Shown piece by piece: positions 540 to 62,112 of a DNA stretch of 64,000 nucleotides. A program made the position numbers and the translations under genes. The notes under the pieces were generated by a model. That model saw nothing but the letters and a program-made list of their open reading frames with translations. It was not told the origin of the DNA and did not search any database. Each line of letters begins with the position of its first letter. The first letter of the stretch is position 1. This DNA is from an uncultured Bacilli bacterium (lineage in GTDB: Bacteria > Bacillota_I > Bacilli_A > RF39 > UBA660), in contig CAKOOS010000006.1 of the NCBI GenBank assembly GCA_934098735.1, forward strand, positions 2,712-66,711. The letters are read 5' to 3'.

Positions 540-598
540 TAAATACGCCTCTTTCTTATTATATTCACTTTTAATAAAAGTCTTACTTTAAAGCAAGA

Positions 599-1633
599 CT
601 ATTTATTTGGATCAACTAGTATTTTAACTGCAGAATCAGTTCCACAAGTTAGCCTTTCATAAGCTTTTTGAACCTGTTCAAGAGGAACAATATCATCAAC
701 AAATTTCATAACATCTATCTTTTTATTTGCAATAAGATCAATACAAGATTTAAATTCATTGTAAGTATAAGCTATAGCTCCTTGTAATACTAATTCTTTC
801 ATTACAGCCATTACAGTATAAGTTTCAACAGCATTTGTAGAAACTCCGACAAGAACAACAATTCCTCCAGGTTTTACCATAGTAATAGCACTATTTACAG
901 CTGCACCATTTCCAACGCATTCAATAACAACATCAAATCCACCATTTGTTTTTTCCATCAATTTATTAATAGTTTCTGGATCAGATCCGTTATACCATTC
1001 ATCAGCAACATTTAATTTAACAGCTTTTTTACCTCTTTCAGCATTTGTTTCTGTTAAAATTACTTTACTTGCTCCTTCTAATTTAGCAAACATCGCAGAA
1101 ACAAGTCCAATTATTCCTCCACCTATTACTAAAACATTATCACCAACAGCTATCCTTCCTAAATGTGCTGCATGAAGTCCAACAGCAGTAGGTTCAACCA
1201 TTGCAACCTCTTCATCACGCATTTTATCAGGAACTTTTATAACCATATCAGATCTTACAGATATTCTCTTTGTAAGTCCTCCAGGATTTTCTAAAGACAA
1301 ACCTACAGCTTGAGACCAAGTCTTGCTGCAATATTGTACTTCCCCTTTTTTACAAGCTTCACATTCTCCACACGGAGATATTGGTAAAGCTGTAACCCTA
1401 TCTCCAACTTCTAAATCTAATCTATCACCAGGGTCTACCACTTTTCCACAAAATTCATGACCCATTATTAATCCTTTAGGTTCTCCAGAAACCCAGTAAT
1501 GAATATCAGAGCCACAAATACCAGTTTTAATTACATCAATTAATACTTTTCCTTCTTCTTTTTTTGGTTCTTCAATTTCCTTAATTTCAAATTGTTTTAC
1601 ATCTTTTATTGCACATGCTTTCACTATTTCCAT
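599..1633 (-). CDS. Zn-dependent medium-chain alcohol/polyol dehydrogenase (sorbitol/threonine dehydrogenase-like)
   Basis: GICGSDIHYW, GHEFCGKV, structural-zinc CGECEACKKG and a Rossmann GGGIIGL motif. Confidence 0.85.
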   Translation of the reverse strand: MEIVKACAIKDVKQFEIKEIEEPKKEEGKVLIDVIKTGICGSDIHYWVSGEPKGLIMGHEFCGKVVDPGDRLDLEVGDRVTALPISPCGECEACKKGEVQYCSKTWSQAVGLSLENPGGLTKRISVRSDMVIKVPDKMRDEEVAMVEPTAVGLHAAHLGRIAVGDNVLVIGGGIIGLVSAMFAKLEGASKVILTETNAERGKKAVKLNVADEWYNGSDPETINKLMEKTNGGFDVVIECVGNGAAVNSAITMVKPGGIVVLVGVSTNAVETYTVMAVMKELVLQGAIAYTYNEFKSCIDLIANKKIDVMKFVDDIVPLEQVQKAYERLTCGTDSAVKILVDPNK

Positions 1634-1639
1634 CTCCTT

Positions 1640-2467
1640 TTATTTCTTATTTATAGTAATTAAATGCGGATAAGGTATTTCTATACCTTGTTTTTCAAAT
1701 TCCTTTTTTATTTCATAATTTAACTTATACATATTTTCAAACGTATCATTATTATCTTTACCCCATACCCAAGCTCTAATAGAAATGCTTGAATCATTCC
1801 AGCTAGAAACTCTAACTTTAGGAAACTCAACATCTTTATTTTTTCCTTTTGAATTTGGATGATATAACTTATCTAATTCGTTTTTTACTATATCTATAGC
1901 TTTGTCAACATCAGATTCATAAGAAATATTAAAATCTACTAACTTAACAGTTTCATTATCATAATAATTAAAATTTTCTATTGTATAGGTATTCATCTGA
2001 CTATTTGGTATTATTACTCTTCTATTATTTATGGTCCTAATAATTGTATGCCTCATTGTAATATCTTCAACAGTACCACTAACATTTTTATCTATACATT
2101 CTATAAAGTCTCCAACTTCATATGCATCACCAATTACAACAGCAAAACTTCCGAAAAAATTCTTTAAACTTTCTTGAGCAGCAAGTCCAAGAACAACAGA
2201 ACTAATTCCTAAACCTGACAAAAGAGTTGTAGAAAAAGTATTAAATACTTCAAATTGTCCCATTATAATCAAGATACATAAAGAATATAGAACTAATTTT
2301 TTTATTCGTTTAACAAACATAAGTAATGTAGTAACATTCTTTTTCCTTTTTCTTCTAATAGTTCGATCAATAAGATTATCAATTATTTTATTAATAAAAA
2401 ATGTTGCAAGGGCTAGTACTAATATCATAACAAGCTTATCAACATATTTTACAAAAAAATCTTTCAT
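1640..2467 (-). CDS. MscS-family mechanosensitive channel
   Basis: N-terminal TM helices followed by a beta-domain (GDFIECIDKNVSGTVEDITMRHTIIRTINNRRVIIPNS), typical of small-conductance mechanosensitive channels. Confidence 0.8.
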   Translation of the reverse strand: MKDFFVKYVDKLVMILVLALATFFINKIIDNLIDRTIRRKRKKNVTTLLMFVKRIKKLVLYSLCILIIMGQFEVFNTFSTTLLSGLGISSVVLGLAAQESLKNFFGSFAVVIGDAYEVGDFIECIDKNVSGTVEDITMRHTIIRTINNRRVIIPNSQMNTYTIENFNYYDNETVKLVDFNISYESDVDKAIDIVKNELDKLYHPNSKGKNKDVEFPKVRVSSWNDSSISIRAWVWGKDNNDTFENMYKLNYEIKKEFEKQGIEIPYPHLITINKK

Positions 2468-2550
2468 TTAATCACCTAAATAAATTGTATCATAAATTTG
2501 CATTTTTAAAAAGATATGATATAATAAAAAACAATTTAATGGGGGTAATT

Positions 2551-3285
2551 ATGAATTTTTTAAGCGTTGGAACAGACACAATAAGTCAAAATTTATTTCA
2601 AAATATAAAAAATGGAAATGACACAAAACCTTACGGAGGACTCTGGGCAACAACATATGATTCAAGATTTCCAGGATATAACGAATGGGTTGATTTTTTA
2701 ATACAAAATATTCATTTATTATTTTACATGAATTATACAAATCCCTTTGAATTACCTGCAGTGTATTTTACTTTAAAAGATAATGCTAAAATATTTAATA
2801 TTGATTCTAAAGAAAAACTTGAATATTTAAAAAATAAATATCCTAATCAAGAAAAATGGATTAATTTTGAAAAACTTCAAGAAGATTATGATGGTATATT
2901 TATACGCATTACTAATTTATTAAATGAGAAAAATATTAATTCTTTTGGTGTAAATACCCTTATTTTATTTAACTTAAATTGTATTAAAGAATATCAAAGT
3001 GCTAAAGTATTTATTGAACCATTCGATTACACATTATATAATCACCTTACTGAATATGAAATAAAATTAGATTCAGAAAAAAAACAAATAAAAAAAACAG
3101 ATCAAAATATTGAACTATTAATTTCTAAAATAAAAGAATATATTAAAAACAATAATTTATCATGTACAATTGAAAGCGAAAGAAAAATATTAAAAATATT
3201 TTATGAAGAATTTAAAAAAATTAAAAACGAAGAAGTCAAAAACAAAGAAAGCTTACTTATAAGAAAAGCCTTTTTAAGTGTTTAA
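2551..3285 (+). CDS. hypothetical protein
   Basis: Long ORF. I moved the start to ATG 2551 (MNFLSV...), which has a GGGGG Shine-Dalgarno 6 nt upstream. I recognise no family. Confidence 0.5.
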   Translation: MNFLSVGTDTISQNLFQNIKNGNDTKPYGGLWATTYDSRFPGYNEWVDFLIQNIHLLFYMNYTNPFELPAVYFTLKDNAKIFNIDSKEKLEYLKNKYPNQEKWINFEKLQEDYDGIFIRITNLLNEKNINSFGVNTLILFNLNCIKEYQSAKVFIEPFDYTLYNHLTEYEIKLDSEKKQIKKTDQNIELLISKIKEYIKNNNLSCTIESERKILKIFYEEFKKIKNEEVKNKESLLIRKAFLSV

Positions 3286-3905
3286 TCTATTTTAAACACT
3301 TTTTTCATGATTAAACTTAAAACGTAAGCACAAATAATCATAATAACAACAGTTATCATACTTCTTGGATTGTGAAAACTTTCTAAAAGTCCAGTTCCAA
3401 CAACACCCCAAAAATACACTAAAAATATTTTACTTATTAAAATAGAAATTAAAAATTTTTTAAAATCCATATTCACAAGTCCAGCAGCTATATTCATCAT
3501 AAAAGCTGGAGTAAAAGGAAAAGATAAAATTATTGTTATTTTTGTTAATGATAAATTTTCTATATAATTCATACATTTAGTTAAGGAATTAATATTTTTA
3601 ATCTTTTTTATAACCCAATTACGAAAAAATTTTTTTACCAAATAATATGACAACAAACATCCCAAAACAGTACATACCCAAGAAATTATAAACCCACCTA
3701 TTTTGCCAAAGGCCACAAAATTAATTGTAATAAAAACAAATAATGGAAGCGGAGGTATTATACTTTCTAACACAATAAACAAACAACCCAATAATGGGCC
3801 GTATACACCAAGATTATCTATTGCATTCATTATAAAATTATAAAAATTATTAAAAATACTACTCATAAATATCACTATTAATATTATAACACAATTTTTA
3901 GTCAC
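3282..3905 (-). CDS. TVP38/TMEM64 (DedA-related) membrane protein
   Basis: About 5 TM helices with a VLESIIPPLPLFVFI... / SFPFTPAFMMNIAAG pattern typical of the SNARE-associated/DedA superfamily. Confidence 0.6.
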   Translation of the reverse strand: MTKNCVIILIVIFMSSIFNNFYNFIMNAIDNLGVYGPLLGCLFIVLESIIPPLPLFVFITINFVAFGKIGGFIISWVCTVLGCLLSYYLVKKFFRNWVIKKIKNINSLTKCMNYIENLSLTKITIILSFPFTPAFMMNIAAGLVNMDFKKFLISILISKIFLVYFWGVVGTGLLESFHNPRSMITVVIMIICAYVLSLIMKKVFKID

Positions 3906-4152
3906 GTATAACTTGAGTTACATCATAACCAAAATATTCTAACATTGCTACAACTTTATTACTTAAATAACCTTTTTCACAAATAATATAATATTTTTTT
4001 TGATAATCCAAACAACTTTTATAATTCATAAGCAATTTATCTGCATATATATTAATTTTACTAAATGGATGTTTTTGATAATCAAGAGGATGCTGAACAT
4101 CTATTAATATTCCCATTGTATCATTAAATTCACTTAATTTAATTCTTTTCAT
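3898..4152 (-). CDS. single-domain rhodanese-like protein
   Basis: 84 aa. ILIDVQHPLDY...YYIICEKGYLS resembles a rhodanese active-site loop with a Cys. Confidence 0.65.
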   Translation of the reverse strand: MKRIKLSEFNDTMGILIDVQHPLDYQKHPFSKINIYADKLLMNYKSCLDYQKKYYIICEKGYLSNKVVAMLEYFGYDVTQVIRD

Positions 4153-4194
4153 AATTACCTCACTATATTTTATGCACTTTAATTTTTAGTGCAT

Positions 4195-4218
4195 AGAAAA
4201 AATAACCATTAGGTTATT
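4195..4218 (-). terminator. rho-independent terminator closing the T4SS operon
   Basis: Stem aataacc/ggttatt with a 4-nt loop overlaps the stop codon and is followed by a T-run on the minus strand. Confidence 0.6.
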
Positions 4219-6391
4219 CATCTCCGAAGAAATCATCAAAGAACTCATCATCAGATATTATATTATCAGCAATAACTTTACTATCTGAATCAATATTTAT
4301 TTTAGGATTATCACTTTTTTCTATGTTTTCTTCAGTTTCTTTCTTTATTTCTTCATTAGGTTTAAGTTCTTCAACCATTTTAGGCAAGCTAATATTTTCA
4401 TCATCACTTTGATTAACAAAATGAGCATCCATCTTCTTTTTCTTTTCCTCTTCTTCTTGACGATCAAGTTCTTTTAATTTTTCATCAATTTCTTTAATCA
4501 TGTTATCTATATCTACATTGCTAAGTGAAGCACCTGGCATAAGTTCTGGATTACCAAACGGATTAAATGATGGCATTTGATTACCAGTTGGTCTAAATGG
4601 ATTAGAAGTTCTAAATGTATCAGGTTCATTTGCCATATTTTTATTTCTTTCTTCTATAACAAATTTTTTAAGATCAAACATTTCTACTTCTTTTCTAACT
4701 CTGGTCGGATATTCTTCTTCTTTTCTTTCTATTCCCCATTCCATTTTAAAATCTGGTTCTAACTTTGTTCTAAATGGATCTGTCCTAAGTCTTTTTACAA
4801 TAGCTTCAAAAAGCTTCATTTTTTGTAAATCAGTAACTGTAATAAGTGGTCTTGTTGCATTTTTATCTTTATCATCAGTTATCTTTACTTCACCACACAT
4901 TTTACTAATTTCTTCAAGGGCTTTCATTTCAGTACTTATAAGATAAACTAAATTACCACAATTTCCTTTAATAATTTCTGCAACATTATCACCATATACA
5001 TCATTAAGTTGTGCAAAGTTTTGAATAATAAAGGTAAATCTTATATCACGACTTCTTGCAGCGGATACCATTGCATCAACATCTTTAAGAGGTGGCATAT
5101 TAGCAAATTCATCTAATATAAAATTAGTTCTATACGGTAGTTTTCCACCATTTTCTTGAGCAACATCAATCAAAGTTTCATAACATTGTTTAATAAAGAT
5201 AGTCATTAATGAATGATATGTTTTCTTTTCATCATGAATAATCATAAATACTGCTGTTTTACCATTACCAATATCCTTCATATTAAAATCACTATATGAA
5301 AGCATTTCACTTAATGCTTCACCAATTGAAAACAATCTTATTTTTTGTCTAAAAGTAGCTAATAATCCACCTTTAGTATCAGATGGAGCATTAATAACTG
5401 CAGCAGCTGATATATATTCATTAGACTTTTCGCCTTTCATTTTGAAATATTCTTTAATATAATTACTTCCAGCAGCAAATCTTTCTTCACCAACTGTACT
5501 CATTACATTAATACTATTTAAATTAACTTCTTCTTCTTTAGCATCTTTAAATAAACCAAGTGCCAAGCCAGAAAAATAGTCCGCAGAAGCTTTTTCCCAA
5601 AAGTCAGATTCATTTTTATTACTTGGATCATACAAAATATTTAAAGCAACGTCATTTAATAACTCAATAGCTTTATCTTGATTACCTTCTCTATAATATC
5701 TAAAAGGCATAGTAAGAGGGTTCCATGAATTACCACGCGTAGGTTCACGAAAATTTAAAACAATTATTTTATATCCACGATCTTTTAAGTATGAAGCACA
5801 ATATTTATAGATTTCTCCTTTTGGATCAGTAATAACCATACTTTCACCTTTTTTAGCTAATAAATTAACCATCGGTTTTACTATAGTTTCAGTTTTACCA
5901 GATCCAGTAGACCCAATAACTAAGTTATGATATTCACCATTATCAACCCACATTTCTTTTCCATTATTGATAAGGGGAATTCCTGCAGCAGTTAAATTAT
6001 CGTCTAAAGGATTTACTTTTTCTACATTACTTTGTTCTTTTATATCTTTGTCTTTGGCCCATTTTGAATAACCATCACTAGATTTTTCTTTTAAAATTAT
6101 TCCAAATCCGCCACCTTTATCTTTTTTAAAAATATAAGAAGAAACACTAGCAAAAATAGCAATCAATACCCCAATAAAAAGTAAAATTGTAACAGGTAAA
6201 TATGATCCTGTAAAAGCTTTAAAAGGAAGAAGACCATAAAAAGTACCATCAGTTGAAAGTGAAGCAAAATTAAGTACAGCTATAGCACATAAATACAACA
6301 ACAATCCACAATACAATAAAAACAATAAAAAATCTTTAGGTTCTACTTTAAACTTCATAAAATCCTTCCTTCCATAAATATTATTATACAA
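4214..6391 (-). CDS. type IV coupling protein (VirD4/TraG/PcfC-like) with a long acidic C-terminal tail
   Basis: Two N-terminal TM helices, Walker A GSTGSGKT, Walker B region ILDEFANMP, then AARSRDIRFTFIIQNFAQL. About 135 aa of low-complexity acidic tail ends in DDEFFDDFFGDE. Confidence 0.9.
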   Translation of the reverse strand: MYNNIYGRKDFMKFKVEPKDFLLFLLYCGLLLYLCAIAVLNFASLSTDGTFYGLLPFKAFTGSYLPVTILLFIGVLIAIFASVSSYIFKKDKGGGFGIILKEKSSDGYSKWAKDKDIKEQSNVEKVNPLDDNLTAAGIPLINNGKEMWVDNGEYHNLVIGSTGSGKTETIVKPMVNLLAKKGESMVITDPKGEIYKYCASYLKDRGYKIIVLNFREPTRGNSWNPLTMPFRYYREGNQDKAIELLNDVALNILYDPSNKNESDFWEKASADYFSGLALGLFKDAKEEEVNLNSINVMSTVGEERFAAGSNYIKEYFKMKGEKSNEYISAAAVINAPSDTKGGLLATFRQKIRLFSIGEALSEMLSYSDFNMKDIGNGKTAVFMIIHDEKKTYHSLMTIFIKQCYETLIDVAQENGGKLPYRTNFILDEFANMPPLKDVDAMVSAARSRDIRFTFIIQNFAQLNDVYGDNVAEIIKGNCGNLVYLISTEMKALEEISKMCGEVKITDDKDKNATRPLITVTDLQKMKLFEAIVKRLRTDPFRTKLEPDFKMEWGIERKEEEYPTRVRKEVEMFDLKKFVIEERNKNMANEPDTFRTSNPFRPTGNQMPSFNPFGNPELMPGASLSNVDIDNMIKEIDEKLKELDRQEEEEKKKKMDAHFVNQSDDENISLPKMVEELKPNEEIKKETEENIEKSDNPKINIDSDSKVIADNIISDDEFFDDFFGDE

Positions 6392-6399
6392 TATTTTCT

Positions 6400-7161
6400 T
6401 TAATCAGCAATAACTAAATCATATTTTCCATCATTATTTTGATACATTGAATACCCAGTATTTCTAATCATAGAATAATAAGTTCTTCTAAAAATTATAT
6501 TACTTCCCTTTGCACCATCAATATTAAAAATAGCATAAATAGCATAGCTTGGTTCATAATGAACTTTTTCTACTTCTATATTTTTATTTAATATAATATT
6601 ATTTACTCCATTAATAACAGTATAAATAACACTAAAATAATTATTAGCACCTTCAATATCAAAATTATTTGCCACTATAATATAATCGTTTATACCATCA
6701 TTATTTAAATCAACTGATACCTTTTCTTGATATGTAAAATCATCAATAGTATAATTTTTTGATAAAATATCATTAAGATAATTCACATCTGAAAGAGATA
6801 AAACATCAACATCGTAATTTTTAACATCCTTAATAAGTTTATTAGAATATGCTAATAAATTACCTTCATAAAATAAATTACTATCAGCTGTATAAACATT
6901 CCAGGTATTTATATAATCAATTTGGTAAATACCTTTATAGAAATTATCAACATAAACAGTATAATTAATATCTTTATCTAATTTATCAGAATCTAAACTA
7001 CGCCATGTATCATTCTTTTTTTCCCATAAAGTATTATTTCCCAAAATAAGATAATCTACCTGGTCGCTTTCTTTTACAACGTTATCTTTAAAAACAAACC
7101 ATACTACTATACCTATTATAGCTAAAGCAAGTATTAATATAATTGAAACTTTCTTATTCAT
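6400..7161 (-). CDS. N-terminally membrane-anchored T4SS-associated protein (occupies the PrgL/VirB8-like position)
   Basis: Single TM (IILILALAIIGIVVWFVF) and an extracytoplasmic body with a DLNNDGINDYII Ca-binding-like loop. The function is inferred from position only. Confidence 0.4.
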   Translation of the reverse strand: MNKKVSIILILALAIIGIVVWFVFKDNVVKESDQVDYLILGNNTLWEKKNDTWRSLDSDKLDKDINYTVYVDNFYKGIYQIDYINTWNVYTADSNLFYEGNLLAYSNKLIKDVKNYDVDVLSLSDVNYLNDILSKNYTIDDFTYQEKVSVDLNNDGINDYIIVANNFDIEGANNYFSVIYTVINGVNNIILNKNIEVEKVHYEPSYAIYAIFNIDGAKGSNIIFRRTYYSMIRNTGYSMYQNNDGKYDLVIAD

Positions 7162-7173
7162 AGCAACCCCTTT

Positions 7174-9303
7174 CTATTTAAATCTATAAGATATATATCT
7201 TACTACATCATTAAAACTATATTTATTAACTTTTCCATCCGCAGGATCTTTAACTATTACGTCATCGCCAGAAATACTTTGATACAATAAATAGTGTGTA
7301 GAATATTTACTATTACTTATTTTAATTAAAACAAAATGATTACTTAAATCAAATGAATTTAAAATATTTTTTTTGTCTTGTACACTTTTTGATGCTACTT
7401 TTTGATCAGATGCTACGCTTAAAGATGGTGCAACTGTTTGTACGCATGACCAAGAAAAATTTCCAGAAGAATCAAAACAACCATTTTTATTTAAAGCATT
7501 TACAAAAGTACCTGCATTAAAATTATCAATATTGGTTTTTACACCTGCACATGTTATGCCAGTAGCTATAGCAGTTACAGCACAACCAGAATTACCCATA
7601 TTTAAACCTGAAGAGCCAAGCTTTATACTAGCCCATCTCGAATCACCTTGTCTGTAAAGTGTACAACCTGGAGTATCATGTTCTGTTCCAATATAATTAC
7701 TACCTGTTTCATTAGCCTTACACTCTTCAGATGATAAATTAAATATATTCTGTCTATAAGGAATCATTTTATCATGAACTTGATAAAGTTTATATGCATA
7801 TTTATCTTCGTCAGTAGTTAAAGCACATGAAGAACCATAGCAAGTTTTAGAAGAACTACAATAATTAGTTACTTGACTAACTCTAGTATCAGACATGTAC
7901 TGTTTAATATAAGGAAAATATGCACATCCACCTTGACTCCATGAACCTGGATTATACCAATTATCCCCTAAGTATGCGTACCTTCCCATCATATCAGCTA
8001 GTGTATTATACTGAGATATATTATCAACAAAAGCACGTACACCTTCAACAAATGAACTATATCTCTTGCAATCTTTTCCATGTCCAGTGTTAGTACATCC
8101 CATACCATAATAGTTATATGCATCACCTGGACTATATCCTTCAACTTCAGCTCTGGTAACTAAAACTTCCGGATTAATATCATTTTGAACAGAAATATCA
8201 TAAATATCACCAGCATGATTAATAAATTCGGTTGCATAACTACCAGATTTATTTGCAAAATGATTTTTAATCTTGGCAATAAATTCATCCCTAGATAAAG
8301 TAGTAAATTTAATTGAAAACTCTTCACAAGTTTCAGAATAATTATTTTCGCTTTCTATGTACTCACAATATGTTGATAAATTATAAAGGCTATATTTACT
8401 AGTTTCAGTATCATCTTCGTTTTCTACTTCATTAATATTGGATTCATTTTGAGAATTAAATAAATAGTTTAATATATCGCCATAATTATTAAAATTAGAC
8501 AAATCTAAAGAATTTAAATCATTTGGAATTGACAAAGAAATATCACTATCTAATGAAGTTATAGTTCCAGTAAAAGAGTCTGGTAAATATAAATAATTTT
8601 CTATTTCCGTATAAAGTTCTTCATATTTTGTCAAAATATCGCTAGGAATATCTTTTTCGAAACCAACATTACAAGTATCTAAAGATATATTTTTATTTGT
8701 ATTATTATAATTTCCAATAGAAAGAGCATTTGTCTTTTGAATAATCATTAATGATTTCAATATTTCATCATTATAATCATTATTTTTGGAAATATAATAT
8801 GTGGCACCAAATACATATTCTTTAATACTAAGAGCCGAAACTTCTTCAGTATCACAAGTTTTTAAAGTAACATTCGTCAAATTAAAATTACATTCTTCAT
8901 TATAATATCCTGAATCAGCACCTCCAAAAGCAGAAACAAGAAAAAGAATTACAATTACAAGAATTACAGCAATGGCAATAACCAACAGCACCCAAGGATT
9001 TGCTGCAATAAAAGTAACTATTTTTGAACCTATCTTACCAGCTATTTGAACAGTTTTTTGACTAGCTACACTTTTAATAGCACTTCCAGTGTTAGGAGTC
9101 GCACCTTCATTTGCTAAAGATTCATTAGTTTCTTCATCATTTGCTAGTTCATCAACGTTTTCTTTTTCTTCTTGTTCTAACTCATCATCGATGTCTTCAT
9201 CATTATTTGTTTCACTAGAAAAAGCACCTAATCTTTCATTAATTCTTTGATTAGGATCATATAACAATTTACCATGTTTATTTTCACTGCTTTTTCTATT
9301 CAC
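7174..9303 (-). CDS. membrane-anchored T4SS cell-wall hydrolase (lysozyme/glucosaminidase-like segment plus C-terminal Cys-His peptidase-like domain)
   Basis: Acidic N-terminus and a TM (WVLLVIAIAVILVIVILFLV). INPEVLVTRAEVEGYSPG...NYYGMGC resembles glucosaminidase/lysozyme-like domains. YRQGDSRWASIKLG...MGNSGCAVTAIATG resembles C39-like/CHAP-type papain-fold peptidases. The position matches PrgK/TcpG/CwlT. The domain calls are tentative. Confidence 0.65.
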   Translation of the reverse strand: MNRKSSENKHGKLLYDPNQRINERLGAFSSETNNDEDIDDELEQEEKENVDELANDEETNESLANEGATPNTGSAIKSVASQKTVQIAGKIGSKIVTFIAANPWVLLVIAIAVILVIVILFLVSAFGGADSGYYNEECNFNLTNVTLKTCDTEEVSALSIKEYVFGATYYISKNNDYNDEILKSLMIIQKTNALSIGNYNNTNKNISLDTCNVGFEKDIPSDILTKYEELYTEIENYLYLPDSFTGTITSLDSDISLSIPNDLNSLDLSNFNNYGDILNYLFNSQNESNINEVENEDDTETSKYSLYNLSTYCEYIESENNYSETCEEFSIKFTTLSRDEFIAKIKNHFANKSGSYATEFINHAGDIYDISVQNDINPEVLVTRAEVEGYSPGDAYNYYGMGCTNTGHGKDCKRYSSFVEGVRAFVDNISQYNTLADMMGRYAYLGDNWYNPGSWSQGGCAYFPYIKQYMSDTRVSQVTNYCSSSKTCYGSSCALTTDEDKYAYKLYQVHDKMIPYRQNIFNLSSEECKANETGSNYIGTEHDTPGCTLYRQGDSRWASIKLGSSGLNMGNSGCAVTAIATGITCAGVKTNIDNFNAGTFVNALNKNGCFDSSGNFSWSCVQTVAPSLSVASDQKVASKSVQDKKNILNSFDLSNHFVLIKISNSKYSTHYLLYQSISGDDVIVKDPADGKVNKYSFNDVVRYISYRFK

Positions 9304-9306
9304 TTA

Positions 9307-11094
9307 TTAATAACCTCCACCTGAACCAAATGAATCGAGTTCTTCTTGTGTAAGAACAATTTCAATTTTCATTCTTTTGTTACCACAAACAAAAAGTGCA
9401 TGACCTTGTTCATAATACTTAATCGATTCCTTTTCAGATTCATTTAAATCAATTAATTTAGCTAAATCTTCAACAGCTTGTTTTCTAAGTCCCATAATAA
9501 TGTAATAAGACGCATTATCAAATATAGCTTTACCATGAGTAATAATATTTGGTGCTGCAAAGTCTGTTGGTTGTTGTGTTATTATAATTGTTCCAGTATT
9601 ATATTTTCTGCTTCGTCTTTGAATTTGAGCTAAAAATTCTGCTCCAAGTTCATTATGACCAGCAAGAAGAACATGAGCTTCATCAACCATCATAACAGTA
9701 TTTATATTTTTATCAAGACATAAGCCCCAAGCATATTTTAAAATATTAAAGAATAAAGCATTTTTAATATTTTCATCACTATTCATAAGTTCTTTTATAT
9801 TAAATACTATAAAGTCACTTTCAATAGATAAAGTCGTTTTACCAGTAAAATAATATCTAAGCTCTTTAACTAAAGGTCTAACTTTAAGTTCAAGTCTTTC
9901 CAATACATCACGTTCATGAGTAGCATCAGTCATTCCTATAAGGTGACCTTTTATAGTTGCATAAACATCATCAAATGTTGGGAAATCAGCACTTGTAAGT
10001 TTAGTAAAATCTGTATCATAATCTATTCTAAATCTTTTATAAGTTTCTTGTAATACATCACTAAACATTGTAAGAACATCATCTTCAATACTCGGTGAAT
10101 AATATTTCATAAAAGCTTTAATTTGTTGAATAGTTCTTGTAAGAACAGTATATCCCAAACCTTGTGCTATTTCTTCTTCATCTGCATCTATAACAATTTC
10201 AAGAGGATTAATCATTCCAAATTCTCCACCTTTACCAAGGTCTAAAAAATCTCCTCCCAAAGAATAACACATATCTCCAAGTTCACCTTCAGGGTCAACG
10301 CATACTACCTTAAAACCATTTCTAATATGAGTTCTAAGTAGTATTTTTGCAGCAGTAGATTTACCAGATCCACTCATACCAAGCAAAATAACATTAGCAT
10401 TATTTCTATTATTTTCTTTTTTAATTTGATATAAAAATTGATTAAATAAAATTACTCCGCCAGAAAAGTCTACCCCTAATAAAGTAGCATCACCAGGATC
10501 CTTAATGCTATCAAAAACAAAAGGATACATAGCTGCTATAGTTACAGATGGTATCGGAGTACCAATTCTTTGTTCAATATCTTGTGGAGGAAATATTGGA
10601 AGAATAGACTTTAAAGCTTTTTCTTGTTCAAACATCAAAGAAACAGCTCGCATCCCTAAAGCATCCAAGTAACTTCTCACTTGAATTTTTTTAAGTTCAA
10701 GTTCTTCCTTGTTATTAGCAGTAATCATTAAATGCATTTGAAAATCAAATATTCTTGCTCCTGTTGCAGCAAGCATTTGAATAAATTGTTCAAGAGATTC
10801 ATAATCTTGACGAATTCTCTCTTGCATTGTTTGATCTTTTTCACTTTGGTATCTAACCTTTAAATCTGCTATTTCTTTATTTAACATTTTTTGCAAAACA
10901 CTAAAAGGAATAGGCATGTGTTTAATTGCTATTTTAACACCTTGAATATTAGTCATATCTGACAAAAAGCCAGGAATAATATTTCTAGGAAATGCTATAA
11001 CAGTCATAATTGTAGAATATTTTCCGCCAAGAACAAATTCAGTAGGTTTAAATTCCATTCCTTTTGGTGCTACTTCACTTTTCAATTTACTCAT
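9307..11094 (-). CDS. VirB4-family T4SS ATPase, ATPase body (C-terminal about 3/4)
   Basis: Walker A LGMSGSGKSTAAK, Walker B VMMVDEAH and IIITQQPTDF, as in PrgJ/TcpF/Orf16/ConE-type proteins. Confidence 0.9.
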   Translation of the reverse strand: MSKLKSEVAPKGMEFKPTEFVLGGKYSTIMTVIAFPRNIIPGFLSDMTNIQGVKIAIKHMPIPFSVLQKMLNKEIADLKVRYQSEKDQTMQERIRQDYESLEQFIQMLAATGARIFDFQMHLMITANNKEELELKKIQVRSYLDALGMRAVSLMFEQEKALKSILPIFPPQDIEQRIGTPIPSVTIAAMYPFVFDSIKDPGDATLLGVDFSGGVILFNQFLYQIKKENNRNNANVILLGMSGSGKSTAAKILLRTHIRNGFKVVCVDPEGELGDMCYSLGGDFLDLGKGGEFGMINPLEIVIDADEEEIAQGLGYTVLTRTIQQIKAFMKYYSPSIEDDVLTMFSDVLQETYKRFRIDYDTDFTKLTSADFPTFDDVYATIKGHLIGMTDATHERDVLERLELKVRPLVKELRYYFTGKTTLSIESDFIVFNIKELMNSDENIKNALFFNILKYAWGLCLDKNINTVMMVDEAHVLLAGHNELGAEFLAQIQRRSRKYNTGTIIITQQPTDFAAPNIITHGKAIFDNASYYIIMGLRKQAVEDLAKLIDLNESEKESIKYYEQGHALFVCGNKRMKIEIVLTQEELDSFGSGGGY

Positions 11095-11095
11095 A

Positions 11096-11656
11096 TCACA
11101 TCACCGCCCCAAAGTTAGTTGCCTCTCCATTATTTAAAAAGTTATCAAGAACAATTCTTAAATCATTATTTGAAGTTTGCATTGATTGAAGTCCAGCACT
11201 AGCTAAACCACTTATTAAATTATGCATTTTTTTTTGAACTAACTCTAATCTTTTTTCTTTAAATAAAATATAATATTCAGTATCTACAACGTTATACTCT
11301 GAACTCATAAATAAATTAGCTTTATTTATATCCTGCATAATAAGCTTTCTTTGCGCTTTATTCGTAGCATTATTATACATAAGTTGTAAATGAGATAAAT
11401 ACACGTCTAAATCAACAGGTCTATCTGCAATAAGAAGCCAAAAATCATAATCAATACTATTATAAAAATTACGTAATTGATAAATAGTATTATTTTGACT
11501 TCCTTGATCTAAAATAAATATATTTTTAGGCATAACCTTTACCCCAGTTACATAAGATCCATCATCAAGTTGGATCATACCATTCATTATTTGTCTAATA
11601 GGAAGCCAATCTTCACTATAGCTAACACCTGAAGCATTACTTACTTTCTGACTCAT
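11096..11656 (-). CDS. VirB4 N-terminal domain encoded as a separate ORF
   Basis: Start moved to ATG 11656 (MSQKVSNASG...). SEDWLPIRQIMNGMIQLDDGSYVTGVKVMPKNIFILD resembles the N-terminal domain normally fused to Gram-positive VirB4. The stop at 11096-98 lies 1 nt from the next ATG. Confidence 0.65.
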   Translation of the reverse strand: MSQKVSNASGVSYSEDWLPIRQIMNGMIQLDDGSYVTGVKVMPKNIFILDQGSQNNTIYQLRNFYNSIDYDFWLLIADRPVDLDVYLSHLQLMYNNATNKAQRKLIMQDINKANLFMSSEYNVVDTEYYILFKEKRLELVQKKMHNLISGLASAGLQSMQTSNNDLRIVLDNFLNNGEATNFGAVM

Positions 11657-11954
11657 CTTTAACACACCAACCTTTCCAATAATATCTGCGTGGATTAAAT
11701 ATAAAATTACATACATTTATTATAAATTGTAAAACATTATGATAATACATTACCGGCGTTACTAGAAAACCAGTAATTACAGCCGGCAACAAAATGATTA
11801 TCATTTGAACTGGACTAGCATTTTGAACCACCATTAGTAATATTAATGTTAGTCCACATCCAAAACAAAAAAGTATAATATCAGTTAAGGTAAAAAAACC
11901 TAAAATTAATTGTGACTTTTTTGAATTAGCAGGTATTAAATAATTATTATTCAT
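11637..11954 (-). CDS. TcpE/PrgI-family small membrane protein (VirB3-like)
   Basis: 105 aa with two TM helices, immediately upstream of VirB4, with an RRYYWKGW tail. Confidence 0.6.
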   Translation of the reverse strand: MNNNYLIPANSKKSQLILGFFTLTDIILFCFGCGLTLILLMVVQNASPVQMIIILLPAVITGFLVTPVMYYHNVLQFIINVCNFIFNPRRYYWKGWCVKDESESK

Positions 11955-11978
11955 CCCATTTCATTCCTTTCAAAATTT

Positions 11979-14237
11979 TTATGGCATTCCACCAGGACCA
12001 CCAGGACCTCCAGGACCAGGTCCAAAATCATCAGGGCCGCCAGGGCCAGGACCATGGCCACCACGTGGGCCTCTCATTCTTCCATCTCGACGAGGAACTG
12101 CTTCACCTGGAGCTTTACTTGCTACATCAGAGCTTATCTTATACCTTGTAATTTCAGAAGAATGTTTAGAATATTCCAATTCTTGTTTTTTACGTTTTAA
12201 GTCTGATAACTCGTATTCCTTTTCAATAGCTTGTTGATCAATATCATTTGTATATCTTTCTAGATCATTTAACGAATCAGATACTGTTCCACCTAAATCG
12301 TCAATAGTTTCCCAAAGATTTTCACTATTTAAAATTTGTTCTCTATTTTCAGCACTTAATTGACTTACACCATTTTGGTCAACAAGTACTTGATTTAATG
12401 TACCATTAGATCGAATATTAGCTATTAAACTTTCCATATTAGAATCGTCAGCTCTTTGACCATTTGCAATTTGACGAGCATTATCATTAACATATTTTGC
12501 AACTAATTCTTTTTCATTTGCAGCTAATTTTTGATTAAACGCAGTAATTTGAGCCGAAGTCATATTAGAAGATGAACTTTTCAATTTTTCTTCTAGTGAT
12601 TTTAAGTTACCAGTTTCTACGCGTCTTTCTGTTCGTGTACCCATAATAGCCTTACCATTATTATCACGTAATCCAGTATCATATTCAACTTCAACTTCAT
12701 ATTCAATAGTAGAAATATAATTAGATTTTTTATCCCAAAGTTTATCTTTAGCTCGCTTTTCAATAGCATCCTTTGCATTGTTAAAGTTTTTATTACCTTT
12801 AATTCTATCACTAACATGCTCATCTAGCAACGGTTTTTTAATTAAATCAATTTCTTCATTTTTTTGTGCAATTTGAGAATCTAAAACATGTATATCGCCA
12901 TCTATTTTTCGAACTTCTTGCTCAAACTTAGTATTAAATCCAAAATGTCTACGCAATCTATCCATAATAATTTCACTACGTGAAGCACCATCTTCAATAG
13001 CCTCTTCAACAGCTTTACGATTATTAGCTTCCCGACCAATAACCTTTAAGTCTTTGTTTTTCCATCCATATCGAAAACCACGTATTGCTGCTAGTGGATT
13101 CCCATGAGAAGTTACAAGTGAACCAGCAGCGCCAGCTGCAGCAAAGGCTCCACCCATAGCAAGTTTATCCATTAAACCAAGTTTCATTCCAGCAGTATCA
13201 ATACCAAACATATCTCCAATAATTTTTGGTATTTGTCTTATAAATATAACAACAGCCATAATGAGTAAAGCTGTAATTATGCTTTTAGCACCTGCAGAAC
13301 CACCAAAATCAAGATTTCCATCACCTTTAGCATTTACTATTATTTGAACAAACTTAACACCAAACGCAATAGCCGCCATACGTATAAAGACCTCTACAAA
13401 TAAGCTGATTACTTGCTTTAGCCATTTAGAAAATACATCTTTCATTTTACCACCAGGTATAATTCTACACATAACTGGTATAGGAGCTATTATTTGATAA
13501 AATGCTAATTTAACAACCCTAACTGCTACATCAAAGCAGAAATTTAATAATATATATAAGATAACTATTCCTGCTATAGTTGAAACTGGAAACATATAAG
13601 TTATGCTTTTATCAACTACTTTTTCAGAAAGCGTACTAAACTTAGTAAAAGATTCACCACCTTCTACAGCATCTTTAATATTGTCATAAGAATTCTCAGA
13701 TGAATCTGTATTTTCACCGTCAGATTGATCATTCTCATAAAAGAAAGAAGTAAATGTATAATAAGCAATATCACGTCCTCCATCCTTAATTTCATCAGTG
13801 GAAGAAGAAACATTATTATCATTACCAAGAATAATTTTATAAATAGTACCTTGATTAACTAGAGAATTTTGAATATTAAACGCAACAGAAAATACCGTAG
13901 GTAAAATAGCAATTATTATTAATGAGCTAACAGTATTTCCAATTAATTTTGAAAAGGAAGTTTCTCCTTTTGAAAAATTTTCTGGATTAATAATTGCTTT
14001 AAGAAGAGAATATGCTAAAACAAAAAGCATAATTAAGCCTAAAACAATATATATTCTGCTAACAATATCATTATAACCTTCATTAGTAAACACATTAAGC
14101 TTTACTAAACTATTAAATATTTCTGTTACATAGCAAATTAAATTATAGATTAAACCATCTATCGTTAACAAAAAACCCCACAATGCAGATAAAATAGTAT
14201 CGCCAATAGAAGCCGTAGTTACAAACATACAATTCAC
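11979..14237 (-). CDS. polytopic T4SS channel protein (VirB6/TcpH/PrgH/ConG-like) with a coiled-coil and Gly-Pro tail
   Basis: About 7 TM helices in the first 390 aa, then about 300 aa of charged coiled-coil and a terminal PGPGGPDDFGPGPGGPGGPGGMP. Size and position match VirB6-like proteins of Gram-positive T4SS. Confidence 0.6.
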   Translation of the reverse strand: MNCMFVTTASIGDTILSALWGFLLTIDGLIYNLICYVTEIFNSLVKLNVFTNEGYNDIVSRIYIVLGLIMLFVLAYSLLKAIINPENFSKGETSFSKLIGNTVSSLIIIAILPTVFSVAFNIQNSLVNQGTIYKIILGNDNNVSSSTDEIKDGGRDIAYYTFTSFFYENDQSDGENTDSSENSYDNIKDAVEGGESFTKFSTLSEKVVDKSITYMFPVSTIAGIVILYILLNFCFDVAVRVVKLAFYQIIAPIPVMCRIIPGGKMKDVFSKWLKQVISLFVEVFIRMAAIAFGVKFVQIIVNAKGDGNLDFGGSAGAKSIITALLIMAVVIFIRQIPKIIGDMFGIDTAGMKLGLMDKLAMGGAFAAAGAAGSLVTSHGNPLAAIRGFRYGWKNKDLKVIGREANNRKAVEEAIEDGASRSEIIMDRLRRHFGFNTKFEQEVRKIDGDIHVLDSQIAQKNEEIDLIKKPLLDEHVSDRIKGNKNFNNAKDAIEKRAKDKLWDKKSNYISTIEYEVEVEYDTGLRDNNGKAIMGTRTERRVETGNLKSLEEKLKSSSSNMTSAQITAFNQKLAANEKELVAKYVNDNARQIANGQRADDSNMESLIANIRSNGTLNQVLVDQNGVSQLSAENREQILNSENLWETIDDLGGTVSDSLNDLERYTNDIDQQAIEKEYELSDLKRKKQELEYSKHSSEITRYKISSDVASKAPGEAVPRRDGRMRGPRGGHGPGPGGPDDFGPGPGGPGGPGGMP

Positions 14238-14657
14238 CTACCCAACACAAGGACCATAAGCCCCAAAAAGTTCCATAATGATTTCTACAATCATTGGCAA
14301 GAAAAATAAAATAACACAATAAATAAATCTTTTAATAGCTGTCCCACTAGCTTTTTTTATTGCATCTTTATCATTAGCTATCAAAGCTTTAAAAAAATCC
14401 ATAGTAACAAGTCCCAATAAAGCCACAATAGCTATATATTTCATAACATCCAAAACAAATTGCATCCAGTGAGCTGGTGATGTGACATCATCTGGATCAC
14501 CAAAATAAGTTCTACAATCAGAATTAGTTTCTGCTAAAGTAATACCAAATGCAGTATTTGCTGAATTTAAACTACTTGCATTTGCCTTTACGGTATAAGA
14601 AAAAAGTAACATAAAAAGTAAACTTACAAAAACAAATTTTTTTATTAAAGTATTCAT
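14238..14657 (-). CDS. small secreted/2-TM protein (VirB2/TrbC-like topology)
   Basis: Start moved to ATG 14657 (MNTLIKKFVFVSLLFMLLFSYTVKANA, a signal peptide) with an upstream GGAAGTGA RBS. Two hydrophobic helices follow. It is the first gene of the T4SS operon. The assignment rests on topology only. Confidence 0.45.
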   Translation of the reverse strand: MNTLIKKFVFVSLLFMLLFSYTVKANASSLNSANTAFGITLAETNSDCRTYFGDPDDVTSPAHWMQFVLDVMKYIAIVALLGLVTMDFFKALIANDKDAIKKASGTAIKRFIYCVILFFLPMIVEIIMELFGAYGPCVG

Positions 14658-14695
14658 TAAATCACTTCCATTCATAAAGCAATACTTGCAACTAA

Positions 14696-14724
14696 ATTTT
14701 ATCATATTTGTTTAAAATCGTCAA
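14696..14724 (-). promoter_or_regulatory. sigmaA-type promoter of the T4SS operon
   Basis: On the minus strand: TTGACG (14719-14724), a 17-nt spacer, then TAAAAT (14696-14701), about 35 nt upstream of ATG 14657. Confidence 0.5.
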
Positions 14725-14734: not shown

Positions 14735-14759
14735 TAAAAAAGAAAGCTCCAAAGAGCTT
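14735..14759 (-). terminator. intrinsic terminator after the DUF1292-like gene
   Basis: Stem aagctc/gagctt with a 4-nt loop overlaps stop 14758-60 and is followed by TTTCTTTTTT on the minus strand. Confidence 0.5.
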
Positions 14760-15010: not shown

Positions 15011-16462
15011 TCACCTACTTATTGACTTTTCATCATATTTATTTTTTATATCTATAATACTCTTTTCTTTATTTATTTTATTAATCAATTTTCTTTTTTC
15101 TCTATCAGTAAGTTCATAATTTTGATCAATACTTATTTTCATTACATCCAAAGCATCTTTATTTAAATTGTTTTTTTCTTCTTCTATTAATTTTAAATAA
15201 TTAATATAAGGCTTGCTTTTTTCTTTACTAAGAAGACCAAAAGAACTTAAAATTGCCCCTCCTGCTGCTAAAGATGCAACAGTATGAGAAAGTGCACTTA
15301 CTTTAGCCATTTCATTTGCGGCCAAATTTGAAGCACTTTGAGCAAATTGCTGTAAGCTTGCACTTCCAACATTCCAAATTCCAGATGCCGGATTATAACT
15401 TAGACTTGTTCCAGAAATACTTTTAATAGCTCCAGCTAAAGCAGTATTAGCACTATGAAGTGCTGCTTGTTCAGAAGCAATAGAATTTTGCCACATAGAA
15501 CTATTATTCAACATCGAATTTGCTAAATTTGAAACAGATGTAGCCTTTGCAGCTTGACTTAATAAAGAACTTAGTTCTGTTGACCCTAAAGCAACCGCAA
15601 CACCAATAGCAGCAACACCAGTTGCTATTAGTATTTTCTTTTTATTTTTCTTTATCCATTGCCATGGTTTTTTCTCAACAACTTCATGTTTTTGATTAGG
15701 TTCCTGATTCTTTTCTAAAGGTTTCAAAACTTCTTCTGGTTCATTTATTTCTTCTTTTTTTACATCATCTTTTTCTTCTAAATTTATAGGTTCTAAAATC
15801 TCTTCTGGCTTAGGATTTTCCAAATTTTTATTTATACTTGCATCTTCTATATCTTCTAAAGGCTCTAAAGGTTCTAAAATCTCTTCTGGCTTAGGATTTT
15901 CCAGATTTTTATTTATATTTGAATCTACTATATCTTCTAAAGGCTCTAAAGGTTCTGGATCTAAAAAATCAACATCATCACTAAACTCTGGTAAAATTGT
16001 AATTTCTGGTTCCTCTAAATCTTCTACATGATTATCATCATTTACTGATATAGTATTATAGCTACTATTATTATTTACAGTTAAAATGCTAGTTCTTATT
16101 TCATCTTGCATTTCATCAGACAAATATTCTCTACTATCTTTAATTTCTTTTCTTCTTCGTTCAATTTCTTCATTTATTTCATTTTCTTCATGCTTATCAC
16201 GTGCTTTAATATCTTGAAGTCTTTGAAGTTTATCTAAATTTTCTTTCATATTGTTATAAGCCTTAATTGTTTTTTGTAAGTCATTTAACTTTTCTGTATT
16301 TTCTTCAATAAACTTTACATCTTTAGGTTTATAATAATTATATTCAATTTCAGATACATCATTTTTATTAAAAGCAAGTTCCAATTCTTGTAAGTCTTTT
16401 TTTGCCCTGGTTAAATCTTCTATTAATTTTTTTTCATTCTCTTTTAAATTGTCTATAATCAT
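15011..16462 (-). CDS. coiled-coil / acidic-repeat membrane protein
   Basis: N-terminal heptad-rich charged region, two 27-aa repeats (ILEPLEPLEDIxDxxINKNLENPKPEE), one TM (ILIATGVAAIGVAVALG), a Ser/Ala-rich segment and a second hydrophobic stretch. Confidence 0.6.
   Translation of the reverse strand: MIIDNLKENEKKLIEDLTRAKKDLQELELAFNKNDVSEIEYNYYKPKDVKFIEENTEKLNDLQKTIKAYNNMKENLDKLQRLQDIKARDKHEENEINEEIERRRKEIKDSREYLSDEMQDEIRTSILTVNNNSSYNTISVNDDNHVEDLEEPEITILPEFSDDVDFLDPEPLEPLEDIVDSNINKNLENPKPEEILEPLEPLEDIEDASINKNLENPKPEEILEPINLEEKDDVKKEEINEPEEVLKPLEKNQEPNQKHEVVEKKPWQWIKKNKKKILIATGVAAIGVAVALGSTELSSLLSQAAKATSVSNLANSMLNNSSMWQNSIASEQAALHSANTALAGAIKSISGTSLSYNPASGIWNVGSASLQQFAQSASNLAANEMAKVSALSHTVASLAAGGAILSSFGLLSKEKSKPYINYLKLIEEEKNNLNKDALDVMKISIDQNYELTDREKRKLINKINKEKSIIDIKNKYDEKSISR
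15789..15960. repeat. 81-bp tandem repeat, about 2.1 copies, in frame within the coiled-coil protein gene
   Basis: ggttctaaaatctcttctggcttaggattttcca... recurs at 15789 and 15870 with a few substitutions. A partial third copy starts at 15951. Confidence 0.8.
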
Positions 16463-19030: not shown

Positions 19031-19132
19031 TTTTACCTCACTATACTAAGTTTAACATAAGACCTAAACAAAAGCTAGAATATAAAGTAGACATTTTAAA
19101 ATATATTTAGTACAATTATAATGGTGATAGTT

Positions 19133-19672: not shown

Positions 19673-19680
19673 ATCCATCA

Positions 19681-20457: not shown

Positions 20458-20561
20458 AAAATCACCTAATATAGTATATGAAAAGAAAATAAAAAGGTTA
20501 TTAGACTTTTGTCATTACAACTTGTCCACTTACTACATAAATTATATTGAAAGGAGAAAAA

Positions 20562-21347: not shown

Positions 21348-21351
21348 GAAA

Positions 21352-21377
21352 AAGCATCTCTTCGGAGGTGTTTTTTT
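21352..21377 (+). terminator. rho-independent terminator of the collagen-like gene
   Basis: agcatctc ttcg gaggtgtt hairpin (with G-U pairs) followed by T7. Confidence 0.65.
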
Positions 21378-21404
21378 AACAAAGCCACTTTAAAGTGCTA
21401 TAAT
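21376..21404 (+). promoter_or_regulatory. sigmaA-like promoter (TTAACA-17-TATAAT)
   Basis: TTAACA at 21376-81, a 17-nt spacer and TATAAT at 21399-21404. Confidence 0.5.
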
Positions 21405-21458
21405 TTAACCAGTTGTGAAACAATGGGGGTTGCAGAATAACTAAATAAGCATAATAGT

Positions 21459-21490: not shown

Positions 21491-21508
21491 AAATTTAGGA
21501 GGGTAATT

Positions 21509-62061: not shown

Positions 62062-62112
62062 ACTTGGTATATTCTAACAAATATTGTATAATTAGTTATT
62101 GAAGGTGTTTAT

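Follow-up and report, generated by a model that had tools for sequence, protein, structure and literature searches.

The operon considered here encodes a Gram-positive type IV secretion system (T4SS) and occupies positions 14724-4197 on the minus strand of a 64-kb stretch of DNA (the window) from an uncultured Bacilli bacterium; its history is best read against the systems that it resembles. In pCF10, the genes follow the order VirB6-like, VirB3-like, VirB4, anchored hydrolase, anchored protein and coupling protein (T4CP), and the window operon agrees with this order. The Prg/Pcf system of pCF10 and the Tra/Trs systems of pIP501 and pGO1 are plasmid-borne and possess relaxases (PcfG, TraA) and an origin of transfer (oriT), unlike the window operon. 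They are also reported to be without VirB2-like pilins (PMC12857230), whereas the window operon has one. The division of VirB4 into TrsD-like and TrsE-like proteins, typical of the pGO1 subclass (PMC12102498), is shared by the window. The window operon is best explained, with good though not full confidence, as a host-owned or domesticated T4SS that has lost its relaxase and its integration and replication functions and is inherited vertically across genome-reduced gut Bacilli, probably of the order RF39. Its genes are identifiable and intact, conserved order-wide, of vertical descent and without a relaxase or recombinase in cis. We infer that the machine works on cells with which contact is made, and that it benefits its own cell and not a mobile element.

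The closest plasmid is pEYLC1.2 of Exiguobacterium acetylicum, on which the genes run CopG, MobP3 relaxase, CD1115-type T4CP, pilin, TrbL, a 117-aa protein, a 200-aa protein, VirB4 and, further along, an SH3 hydrolase and a Tad-like pilus cluster. Plasmids of this MobP3/CD1115-T4CP type (pEYLC1.2 and Bacillus thuringiensis plasmids) have the same core order as the window, namely pilin, TrbL/VirB6, small transmembrane (TM) protein, an N-terminal VirB4 piece (VirB4N) of about 200 aa, a VirB4 of about 600 aa and hydrolase. Their T4CP falls in the same NCBIfam family, and the adjacent Tad-like cluster recurs at some of the related loci. On the plasmid, however, CopG and the MobP3 relaxase stand right before the T4CP and ParM is present, whereas the window operon is without these and carries its T4CP last. 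Identity between plasmid and window proteins is only 29-31% (29-30% for the best plasmid VirB4 and T4CP). Because the 200-aa protein of pEYLC1.2 is a separate homologue of VirB4N, the split of VirB4 is ancestral; a frameshifted VirB4 was rejected, since the split occurs in 78 of 79 loci and on this plasmid. The original prediction had described VirB4 as being in two pieces, and this stands as the normal ancestral arrangement and not as damage. Named VirB4 relatives sampled at 29-34% identity come from Thomasclavelia ramosa, Solobacterium, Erysipelotrichaceae and a Mycoplasmatota plasmid. From such comparisons, the ancestor of the operon appears to have been a conjugative element of Bacilli whose type combines a MobP3 relaxase, a CD1115 T4CP and a pilin.

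Other chromosomal or relaxase-less systems are also instructive. The bacteria-killing T4SSs of Xanthomonas and Stenotrophomonas are chromosomal, have a T4CP and no relaxase, and deliver effectors that are paired with envelope-anchored or lipoprotein immunity partners. The likeness lies in the pairing of a wall-degrading enzyme with a cognate partner, as hydrolase type and next gene co-vary perfectly here. In contrast, that system belongs to diderms and uses soluble effectors with a C-terminal secretion domain, whereas the present hydrolase is TM-anchored like those of conjugative systems. ComB-type uptake systems are without a VirD4 coupling protein; the window operon differs in containing a T4CP, and a constrained one. 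Mycoplasma integrative and conjugative elements (ICEs) are mobile, using a DDE transposase, and to our knowledge no canonical relaxase has been described in them. Their conjugation module (Mbov_0396 and Mbov_0397 families) provides the best NCBIfam matches for the window VirB4 (340 bits) and VirB6-like protein, all below cut-offs, and differs in having VirB3 and VirB4 fused. These elements have no VirB1-like and VirB8-like parts (PMC12857230).

As a functional analogue, the T4SS of Patescibacteria (e.g. Southlakia epibionticum) comes nearest. It is likewise monoderm and MPF_FATA-derived, chromosomal, lineage-wide and relaxase-less, and it is essential for the epibiotic growth of Southlakia (PMC12102498; PMC12857230). 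The likeness extends to a TrsD-like VirB4N homologue beside VirB4, to PF18895 VirB2-like pilins that often form arrays of divergent paralogues, to hydrolases directly downstream of virB4, to a position near replication-origin marker genes and to reduced, auxotrophic genomes. The patescibacterial T4CP is usually remote and non-essential, whereas here it lies in the operon under constraint; pilin arrays are frequent there, whereas the window species has one pilin gene; and the present system belongs to Bacillota. Membership of the window VirB4 in the patescibacterial VirB4 clade seems unlikely, and its named relatives from Erysipelotrichales and a Mycoplasmatota plasmid make an independent domestication likely.

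The operon consists of eight co-directional genes in one transcription unit, spaced 0-24 nt apart except for a single overlap of 20 nt. The original prediction had counted nine tightly packed, co-directional open reading frames (ORFs); their packing, strand and order hold, and the count is corrected to eight. In order of transcription these encode a VirB2-like pilin (14657-14238), a VirB6-like polytopic channel protein (14237-11979), a TcpE/PrgI or VirB3-like protein with two TM segments (11954-11637), VirB4N, a TrsD- or 'TraC-like' piece of about 186 aa (11656-11096; the mechanical ORF starts at 11716), the 595-aa C-terminal piece of the VirB4 ATPase (VirB4C, 11094-9307), a membrane-anchored wall hydrolase (9303-7174), an N-anchored 253-aa partner protein (7161-6400) and a VirD4-type coupling protein of the CD1115 family (6391-4214, with the likely start at the ATG at 6358). 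All canonical parts of a monoderm T4SS appear to be present, and the genes are intact.

Profile searches bear out the VirB4 and VirD4 assignments made originally. The T4CP matches NCBIfam conju_CD1115 with 297.9 bits (cut-off 250) and Pfam T4SS-DNA_transf with 190 bits, as well as TraG-D_C and TrwB_AAD_bind, and it has two N-terminal TM segments, intact Walker A and B motifs and an acidic C-terminal tail. VirB4C matches P-loop_TraG and AAA_10 above Pfam cut-offs and PDB entry 4AG5 (E 4e-58), with Walker A and B intact; its 340 bits against the Mycoplasma VirB4_plasma profile fall below the cut-off of that family. A single Mycoplasma profile, in which VirB3 and VirB4 are fused, is matched in succession by the 105-aa (2-96), 186-aa (103-277) and 595-aa (294-891) products, and VirB4N carries PF26593 in precomputed annotation. 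The earlier TcpE and VirB6/TcpH-like assignments fit in topology and position, while their Pfam scores lie just under the cut-offs: TcpE gives 26.2 bits (cut-off 29.9) for a protein with two TM segments by hydropathy, and TrbL gives 25.4 bits (cut-off 25.9) for the VirB6-like protein. Three NCBIfam families of Mycoplasma/pLS20 conjugation TM proteins match the latter as well, each under its cut-off, and hydropathy shows at least five TM segments in residues 55-342 followed by a soluble C-terminal domain of about 400 aa. The TrbL and TcpE assignments are thus consistent with topology and operon position.

The 155-aa product of the first gene had been described as a small protein with a signal peptide and two TM segments, and it can now be named a VirB2-like pilin. 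The window protein itself has no match to PF18895, whereas 23 of the 89 members of its family match this T4SS_pilin family, and on pEYLC1.2 a gene annotated 'pilin' occupies the same position. Members share a signal peptide, two hydrophobic helices with a charged loop between them and two invariant Cys residues. A tblastn search against plasmids with the pilin returned no match. Exactly two residues are invariant in the family, Cys64 and Cys153 counted from the ORF start at 14705 (48 and 137 from 14657), of which the former precedes the first hydrophobic helix and the latter lies near the C-terminus. The pair could form a disulfide that staples the hairpin, where some VirB2 pilins are instead cyclised head to tail.

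The 709-aa product, originally read as a membrane-anchored two-domain wall hydrolase, has no direct Pfam match, and the domains were recovered from a predicted structure. In an AlphaFold model of the C-terminal 380 residues (pLDDT 83.6), a C39/papain-like Cys peptidase domain stands beside a helical domain; in Foldseek the former matches PCAT1/ComA peptidase domains (probability 1.0, TM-score up to 0.65 on the target) and the latter gives weak GH73/SagB/LytB-like matches. A homologue at 45% identity carries Peptidase_C39_2, and Cys574 and His670 are invariant. The two domains agree with the earlier reading, and the protein is predicted to be a membrane-anchored multi-domain wall hydrolase, an analogue of VirB1. 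Irrespective of catalytic type, every hydrolase allele keeps the motif (N)KLLYDPNQ..RRLGAFS in its cytoplasmic N-terminus, together with an acidic linker and a TM segment, AFIAANPW (window 9000-9303), and this constant module may dock the enzyme to the T4SS. For the 253-aa partner there was no Pfam or PDB match, and its AlphaFold model, built from a 4-sequence alignment, was unusable (pLDDT 45). A VirB8/PrgL-like (NTF2-fold) character of the 253-aa protein is conjectural, and the partner slot holds three families (a253, c18 and c13). Among these no mutual homology was detectable, hhalign returning TM or short chance matches only. Profile searches of the pilin, hydrolase, a253, c13 and c18 families against PDB sequences gave no meaningful match.

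The functions of a mobile element are missing around this operon. The search for relaxases and recombinases covered the 64-kb window and 10 kb on either side of 90 related loci (L001-L090), and Pfam coverage of the whole window combined precomputed hits on identical contigs with direct scans. No Pfam match to a relaxase, recombinase or replication initiator was found across the window, the MobP3 relaxase of the closest plasmid had no tblastn match in the window or in 92 loci, and no att-like repeats flank the block, which agrees with the absences listed in the original prediction. A direct repeat at 4147-4167 and 19025-19045 was considered as an att site and rejected, as it represents two similar ribosome-binding-site and start regions. 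There is no tRNA near the block, the sole tRNA of the window being at 61468-61541, and no compositional break, the GC content of the block being like that of its surroundings. A PHROGs scan of all ten proteins returned generic P-loop matches only and no phage link. Pfam annotation of the flanks also agrees with the earlier description: one side holds FemAB, LemA, collagen-like/BclA, UDG (ung), DnaB, L9, S18-SSB-S6 (the rpsF-ssb-rpsR group), ParB/ParA, the S10-spc-alpha ribosomal operons, Spo0A and glycolytic genes, and the other holds rhodanese, VTT/DedA (TVP38), MscS and ADH.

The comparison of related genomes that had been proposed for the block and its flanks places the operon at one fixed site. 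The exact 595-aa VirB4 occurs on at least 22 human-gut metagenome contigs of the same species, always between FemAB and rhodanese/VTT/MscS/ADH. Relatives of VirB4 are present in 275 species-level genomes of uncultured gut Bacilli, drawn from a collection with one genome per species, and detailed comparisons use the best 80 of the 275 stretches, at 79-94% identity. Their records bear names such as 'Clostridium sp. CAG:609', 'Firmicutes bacterium CAG:460', 'Mycoplasma sp. CAG:776', 'uncultured Tenericutes UMGS...', 'Candidatus Onthocola' and 'uncultured Bacilli'. In ORF clustering of the 80 loci, VirB4N adjoins VirB4C as a separate gene in 78 of 79. VirB6 is present in 58 and at least one pilin-family gene in 53 of the 61 loci with enough upstream sequence; 25 of these 61 have arrays of 2-4 pilin copies, the window having a single copy. 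Hydrolase, partner and T4CP come next in 41 of the 50 loci whose sequence extends far enough downstream. Overall, the series pilin-VirB6-VirB3-VirB4N-VirB4C is almost universally syntenic. When 1.8 billion cluster representatives were searched exhaustively, one at 68% identity, two tiny clusters at 45-47% and the rest at 34% or below were returned, which shows the VirB4 of this group as an isolated clade.

Selection and co-divergence connect the operon with the surrounding chromosome. Against 11 nearby species, the ratio of nonsynonymous to synonymous divergence (dN/dS) is 0.07 for VirB4C, 0.09 for TcpE, 0.15 for VirB4N and 0.18 for the T4CP, as compared with 0.13-0.15 for UDG, ADH and MscS and 0.23 for FemAB, values that are usable as a ranking only because dS is close to saturation. 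By this ranking, the motor genes appear to be constrained as much as neighbouring housekeeping genes or more. The T4SS genes have the same dS as the flanks (0.79-1.0 and 0.75-1.12, respectively), an argument for vertical descent. The same equality, with the shared synteny, led to rejection of recent horizontal spread as the source of the high VirB4 identity. Loci whose VirB4 is closer to that of the window also tend to be closer to it in T4CP (rho 0.82), VTT (0.68) and MscS (0.67). Walker A is intact in 90 of 90 VirB4C and 56 of 56 T4CP orthologues, and in 79 of 80 loci VirB4C forms an intact ORF, while in the remaining one a contig edge truncates it. The fixed position, the 275 genomes, the co-divergence and equal dS with the flanks, the purifying selection on the ATPases and the intact Walker motifs together make domestication the best supported of the possibilities raised in the original prediction.

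Within this conserved frame, two blocks turn over rapidly. In the window species, DNA of different strains is 98-99% identical except in two sharp-edged blocks revealed by blastn, 13148-11971 and 9305-6411 (minus strand). The first, cassette 1, comprises the C-terminal half of the VirB6-like protein and is unalignable between strains whose flanks are 98-99% identical, the product ranging in length from 695 to 843 aa. The second, cassette 2, comprises hydrolase and partner, and in other strains it holds an M23/Phage_lysozyme2 hydrolase (933-939 aa) with an unrelated 278-aa protein, replaced as a unit. Across species, the hydrolase slot contains M23, two lysozyme families, SpoIID, C39-like, CHAP, NlpC/P60 and SGNH domains. 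In 48 species-level loci, the type of the last 200 residues of the hydrolase always matches one particular family in the gene that follows: C39-like occurs with a253 (15/15), M23/lysozyme2 with c18 (11/11) and four other types with the lipoprotein c13 (22/22). These counts are inflated by relatedness; nonetheless, the swap is seen within one species and between close species. The matching suggests a cognate enzyme and regulator, or an effector/immunity-like pair. Exposed parts show rapid, cassette-like turnover and cytoplasmic and motor parts strong constraint, and such fast evolution of exposed parts points to interaction with variable partners or enemies, be these other cells, phages or host immunity.

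Alternative histories must be weighed against this evidence. If the operon were a decaying, non-functional remnant of an ancient ICE, the lack of relaxase, integrase and att sites in the regions searched would be expected, as would the start of the operon right after tRNA-Trp, where ICEs classically integrate, in 10 related species. Such decay is nevertheless highly improbable given an intact VirB4C in all but one of 80 loci, Walker A motifs preserved in every VirB4 and T4CP orthologue, dN/dS of 0.07-0.18 and a conserved promoter; the idea of a surviving core of an old ICE, also raised originally, holds as history, in view of the gene order of pEYLC1.2, and fails as decay. Harder still to credit is an ordinary ICE with relaxase, integrase and att sites beyond the region examined. 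The window does stop 600 bp past ADH, which leaves some space for it, but core genes lie on both sides (ribosomal operons, dnaB, parAB, FemAB, MscS), the flanks co-diverge with the operon, the site is the same in every strain found and the GC content is that of the surroundings. A role in ComB-like DNA uptake, in DNA release or as an adhesion-only pilus is improbable: being relaxase-less and chromosomal recalls ComB, weak NCBIfam matches to archaeal Ced import ATPases exist, and pilin arrays and Tad-like pilus genes adjoin the operon in some lineages, yet the operon includes a constrained T4CP and the Ced matches are far below cut-offs.

A chromosomal conjugation machine whose relaxase and oriT lie elsewhere, on mobilisable islands or on the chromosome, and which mediates distributive or Mycoplasma-like transfer within the clade, is the rival that deserves most attention, although it too is unlikely. 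A VirD4-type T4CP with TraG-D_C is retained under purifying selection, the closest profile matches are to the VirB4 and TM proteins of Mycoplasma ICEs, sharp-edged allele swaps in 98-99% identical DNA indicate active homologous exchange between strains, and one locus (L049) has a second, truncated T4CP gene together with helix-turn-helix (HTH) genes. On the other hand, no Pfam relaxase is found in the window and no MobP3 homologue in the window or 92 loci, order-wide fixation with housekeeping-level constraint would be unusual if the benefit went to other mobile elements, and recombination between strains is possible by any route. Several considerations weigh against domestication and are best taken together. 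The relaxase search extends over the 64 kb and over 10 kb on either side in relatives, and a relaxase or oriT elsewhere in the genome would mean conjugation in trans; detection used Pfam and one MobP3 query, which a relaxase of an unfamiliar family would escape. All genomes compared are metagenome-assembled, the evidence consists of sequence comparison and predicted structures, and dS is near saturation as stated above. The relatives probably belong to GTDB order RF39, a placement based on record names and GTDB taxonomy, with partial confirmation in published text for Ca. Onthocola and CAG:609. In 9 of 50 loci, seemingly of one lineage, there is no hydrolase, partner or T4CP in the 7-10 kb downstream, and dependence on the T4CP may therefore not be universal.

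If the operon is domesticated, its working can be outlined from the predicted parts. The two pieces of VirB4, VirB4N and VirB4C, would dock on the VirB3-like protein and energise the channel of the VirB6-like protein. The anchored multi-domain hydrolase would open the peptidoglycan, its activity being controlled by the cognate partner. The VirB2-like pilin would form an extracellular fibre or line the channel, and the VirD4 coupling protein would feed a cytoplasmic substrate to the channel during cell-cell contact. That such a substrate is exported is argued by the constraint on the T4CP. A protein or other cargo used in interbacterial interaction, either antagonism or dependence on partner cells, can be proposed tentatively as this substrate; DNA, with a relaxase encoded elsewhere, is a rather less likely candidate, and DNA uptake or release, or a role in adhesion only, appears quite unlikely. 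A broader and doubtful conjecture is that these gut Bacilli, probably RF39, which lack fatty-acid and many amino-acid and vitamin pathways, live by physical contact with other cells, that the pilin-bearing T4SS is their contact organ and a counterpart, of independent origin, of the essential patescibacterial system, and that the matched, strain-variable cassettes and the variable VirB6 domain set which target walls can be breached or serve in kin discrimination as effector/immunity-like pairs.

Control signals delimit the unit. A hairpin with a T-run at 14744-14759 (minus strand), found by terminator scan and sequence reading, ends the upstream orf483-orf82 unit and forms the left boundary of the T4SS unit. 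The promoter, TTGACG-17-TAAAAT with a TG-extended -10, lies at 14696-14724 (minus strand). Promoter-like matches occur in this AT-rich region at chance frequency (83 versus 83.1 expected), and the promoter scan taken alone was rejected as uninformative; cross-species conservation was used instead. The -35 element, the extended -10 and their spacing are kept in at least 10 species with unrelated DNA beyond the promoter. Between promoter and start codon, at 14658-14695 (minus strand), alignment of upstream regions reveals a conserved 5' leader and ribosome-binding site (GGAAGTGAT) before the real start codon, the mechanical pilin ORF reaching 14705 and so overlapping the -10 box. The conservation of this leader, about 40 nt from -10 box to ribosome-binding site with the consensus TTTAtGTATCAAGTGTTGCTTG..GGAATAGGAGTGATTT, extends to at least 10 species, and the leader could be an operator or a regulatory RNA element. 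At the other end, a weak hairpin (AACC-TAAT-GGTT) with a T-run right after the T4CP stop (4197-4215, minus strand) is the probable operon terminator; it was read from the sequence and missed by the terminator scan, whereas most other species have a clear hairpin and T-run at the same position. The promoter claimed in the original prediction is upheld, then, while the terminal terminator is weak in the window and clear in most other species. The rhodanese gene 3' of the T4CP has its own -10-like box.

Several further features of the related loci may be recorded. In 10 species (L023, L027, L028, L029, L033, L035, L039, L040, L044, L049), a tRNA-Trp(CCA) gene precedes the pilin gene by 45-230 nt, on the same strand, and has Hydrolase_2 and CmpB-like genes beside it. 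The window has this tRNA-Trp (61468-61541) and its neighbours (61639-62808) 47 kb from the operon. It is plausible that this tRNA is a relic integration site of the ancestral element, later parted from the operon by rearrangement. Other loci have a Tad-like pilus set beside the T4SS, consisting of a TadA-like ATPase, two polytopic proteins, pairs of pilin-like proteins of about 80 and 170 aa and a protein of about 320 aa. This set is located upstream of pilin arrays in L059, L067, L068, L070, L080-L084 and L086, is found in L093 at 19469-25614 and does not occur in the window. Of these neighbours, the TadA-like ATPase alone was confirmed (tblastn), and Pfam gave no match for c15, c16, c21, c40 and c47. 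In the nine loci without nearby hydrolase, partner and T4CP (L052, L054, L061, L067, L071, L073, L074, L075, L087), the series pilins-VirB6-VirB3-VirB4N-VirB4C is kept, and several have collagen-like genes in the vacant place. Sporadic insertions occur in the gap between T4CP and rhodanese (L014, L015, L017, L019, L020, L056) or after VirB4C (L066, L072, L056); the inserted genes include a PD-(D/E)XK transposase-family gene and ORFs with a P-loop-like motif in the first 60 or so residues, and the T4SS genes are undisrupted. The second T4CP gene of L049 (417 aa) lies with its HTH-type genes at 52-3749, upstream of the resident operon, and may belong to a separate mobile element that uses the resident operon or decays beside it.

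Adjoining the operon in the window, orf483 (15011-16462) contains an 81-nt tandem repeat at 15785-15946, its two copies being 94% identical. Its product is a coiled-coil protein with a single TM segment that varies from 455 to 483 aa between strains, and orf483 and orf82 are found almost only in the window's species. Two divergently oriented collagen-like genes (GPT-repeat, BclA_C) are located at 19681-21347 and the Spo0A gene at 56349-57113; these suggest that this reduced-genome organism sporulates with an exosporium-like layer.

RF39 bacteria are prevalent in human and animal guts and are known mainly for genome reduction and auxotrophy (PMC6784871, PMC9606305), and literature up to 2025 still describes them as uncultured. 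In full-text literature searches, no paper that connects RF39 with type IV secretion turned up. The patescibacterial T4SS has been called unique among monoderms in being needed for growth and in having pilins (PMC12857230). As a kind, the co-opted monoderm T4SS is known; apparently not described so far are this lineage, an architecture that includes the T4CP and the matched cassettes of hydrolase and partner. The swapped hydrolase/partner modules would offer a natural set for studying how Gram-positive T4SSs cross the wall, and the operon would provide a handle on the interactions of RF39 organisms with their neighbours, through imaging, co-culture design and metatranscriptomics. A second relaxase-less T4SS with a pilin, probably domesticated independently and fixed across an order of Bacillota, would make the co-option of such machines by reduced-genome bacteria a recurrent event.

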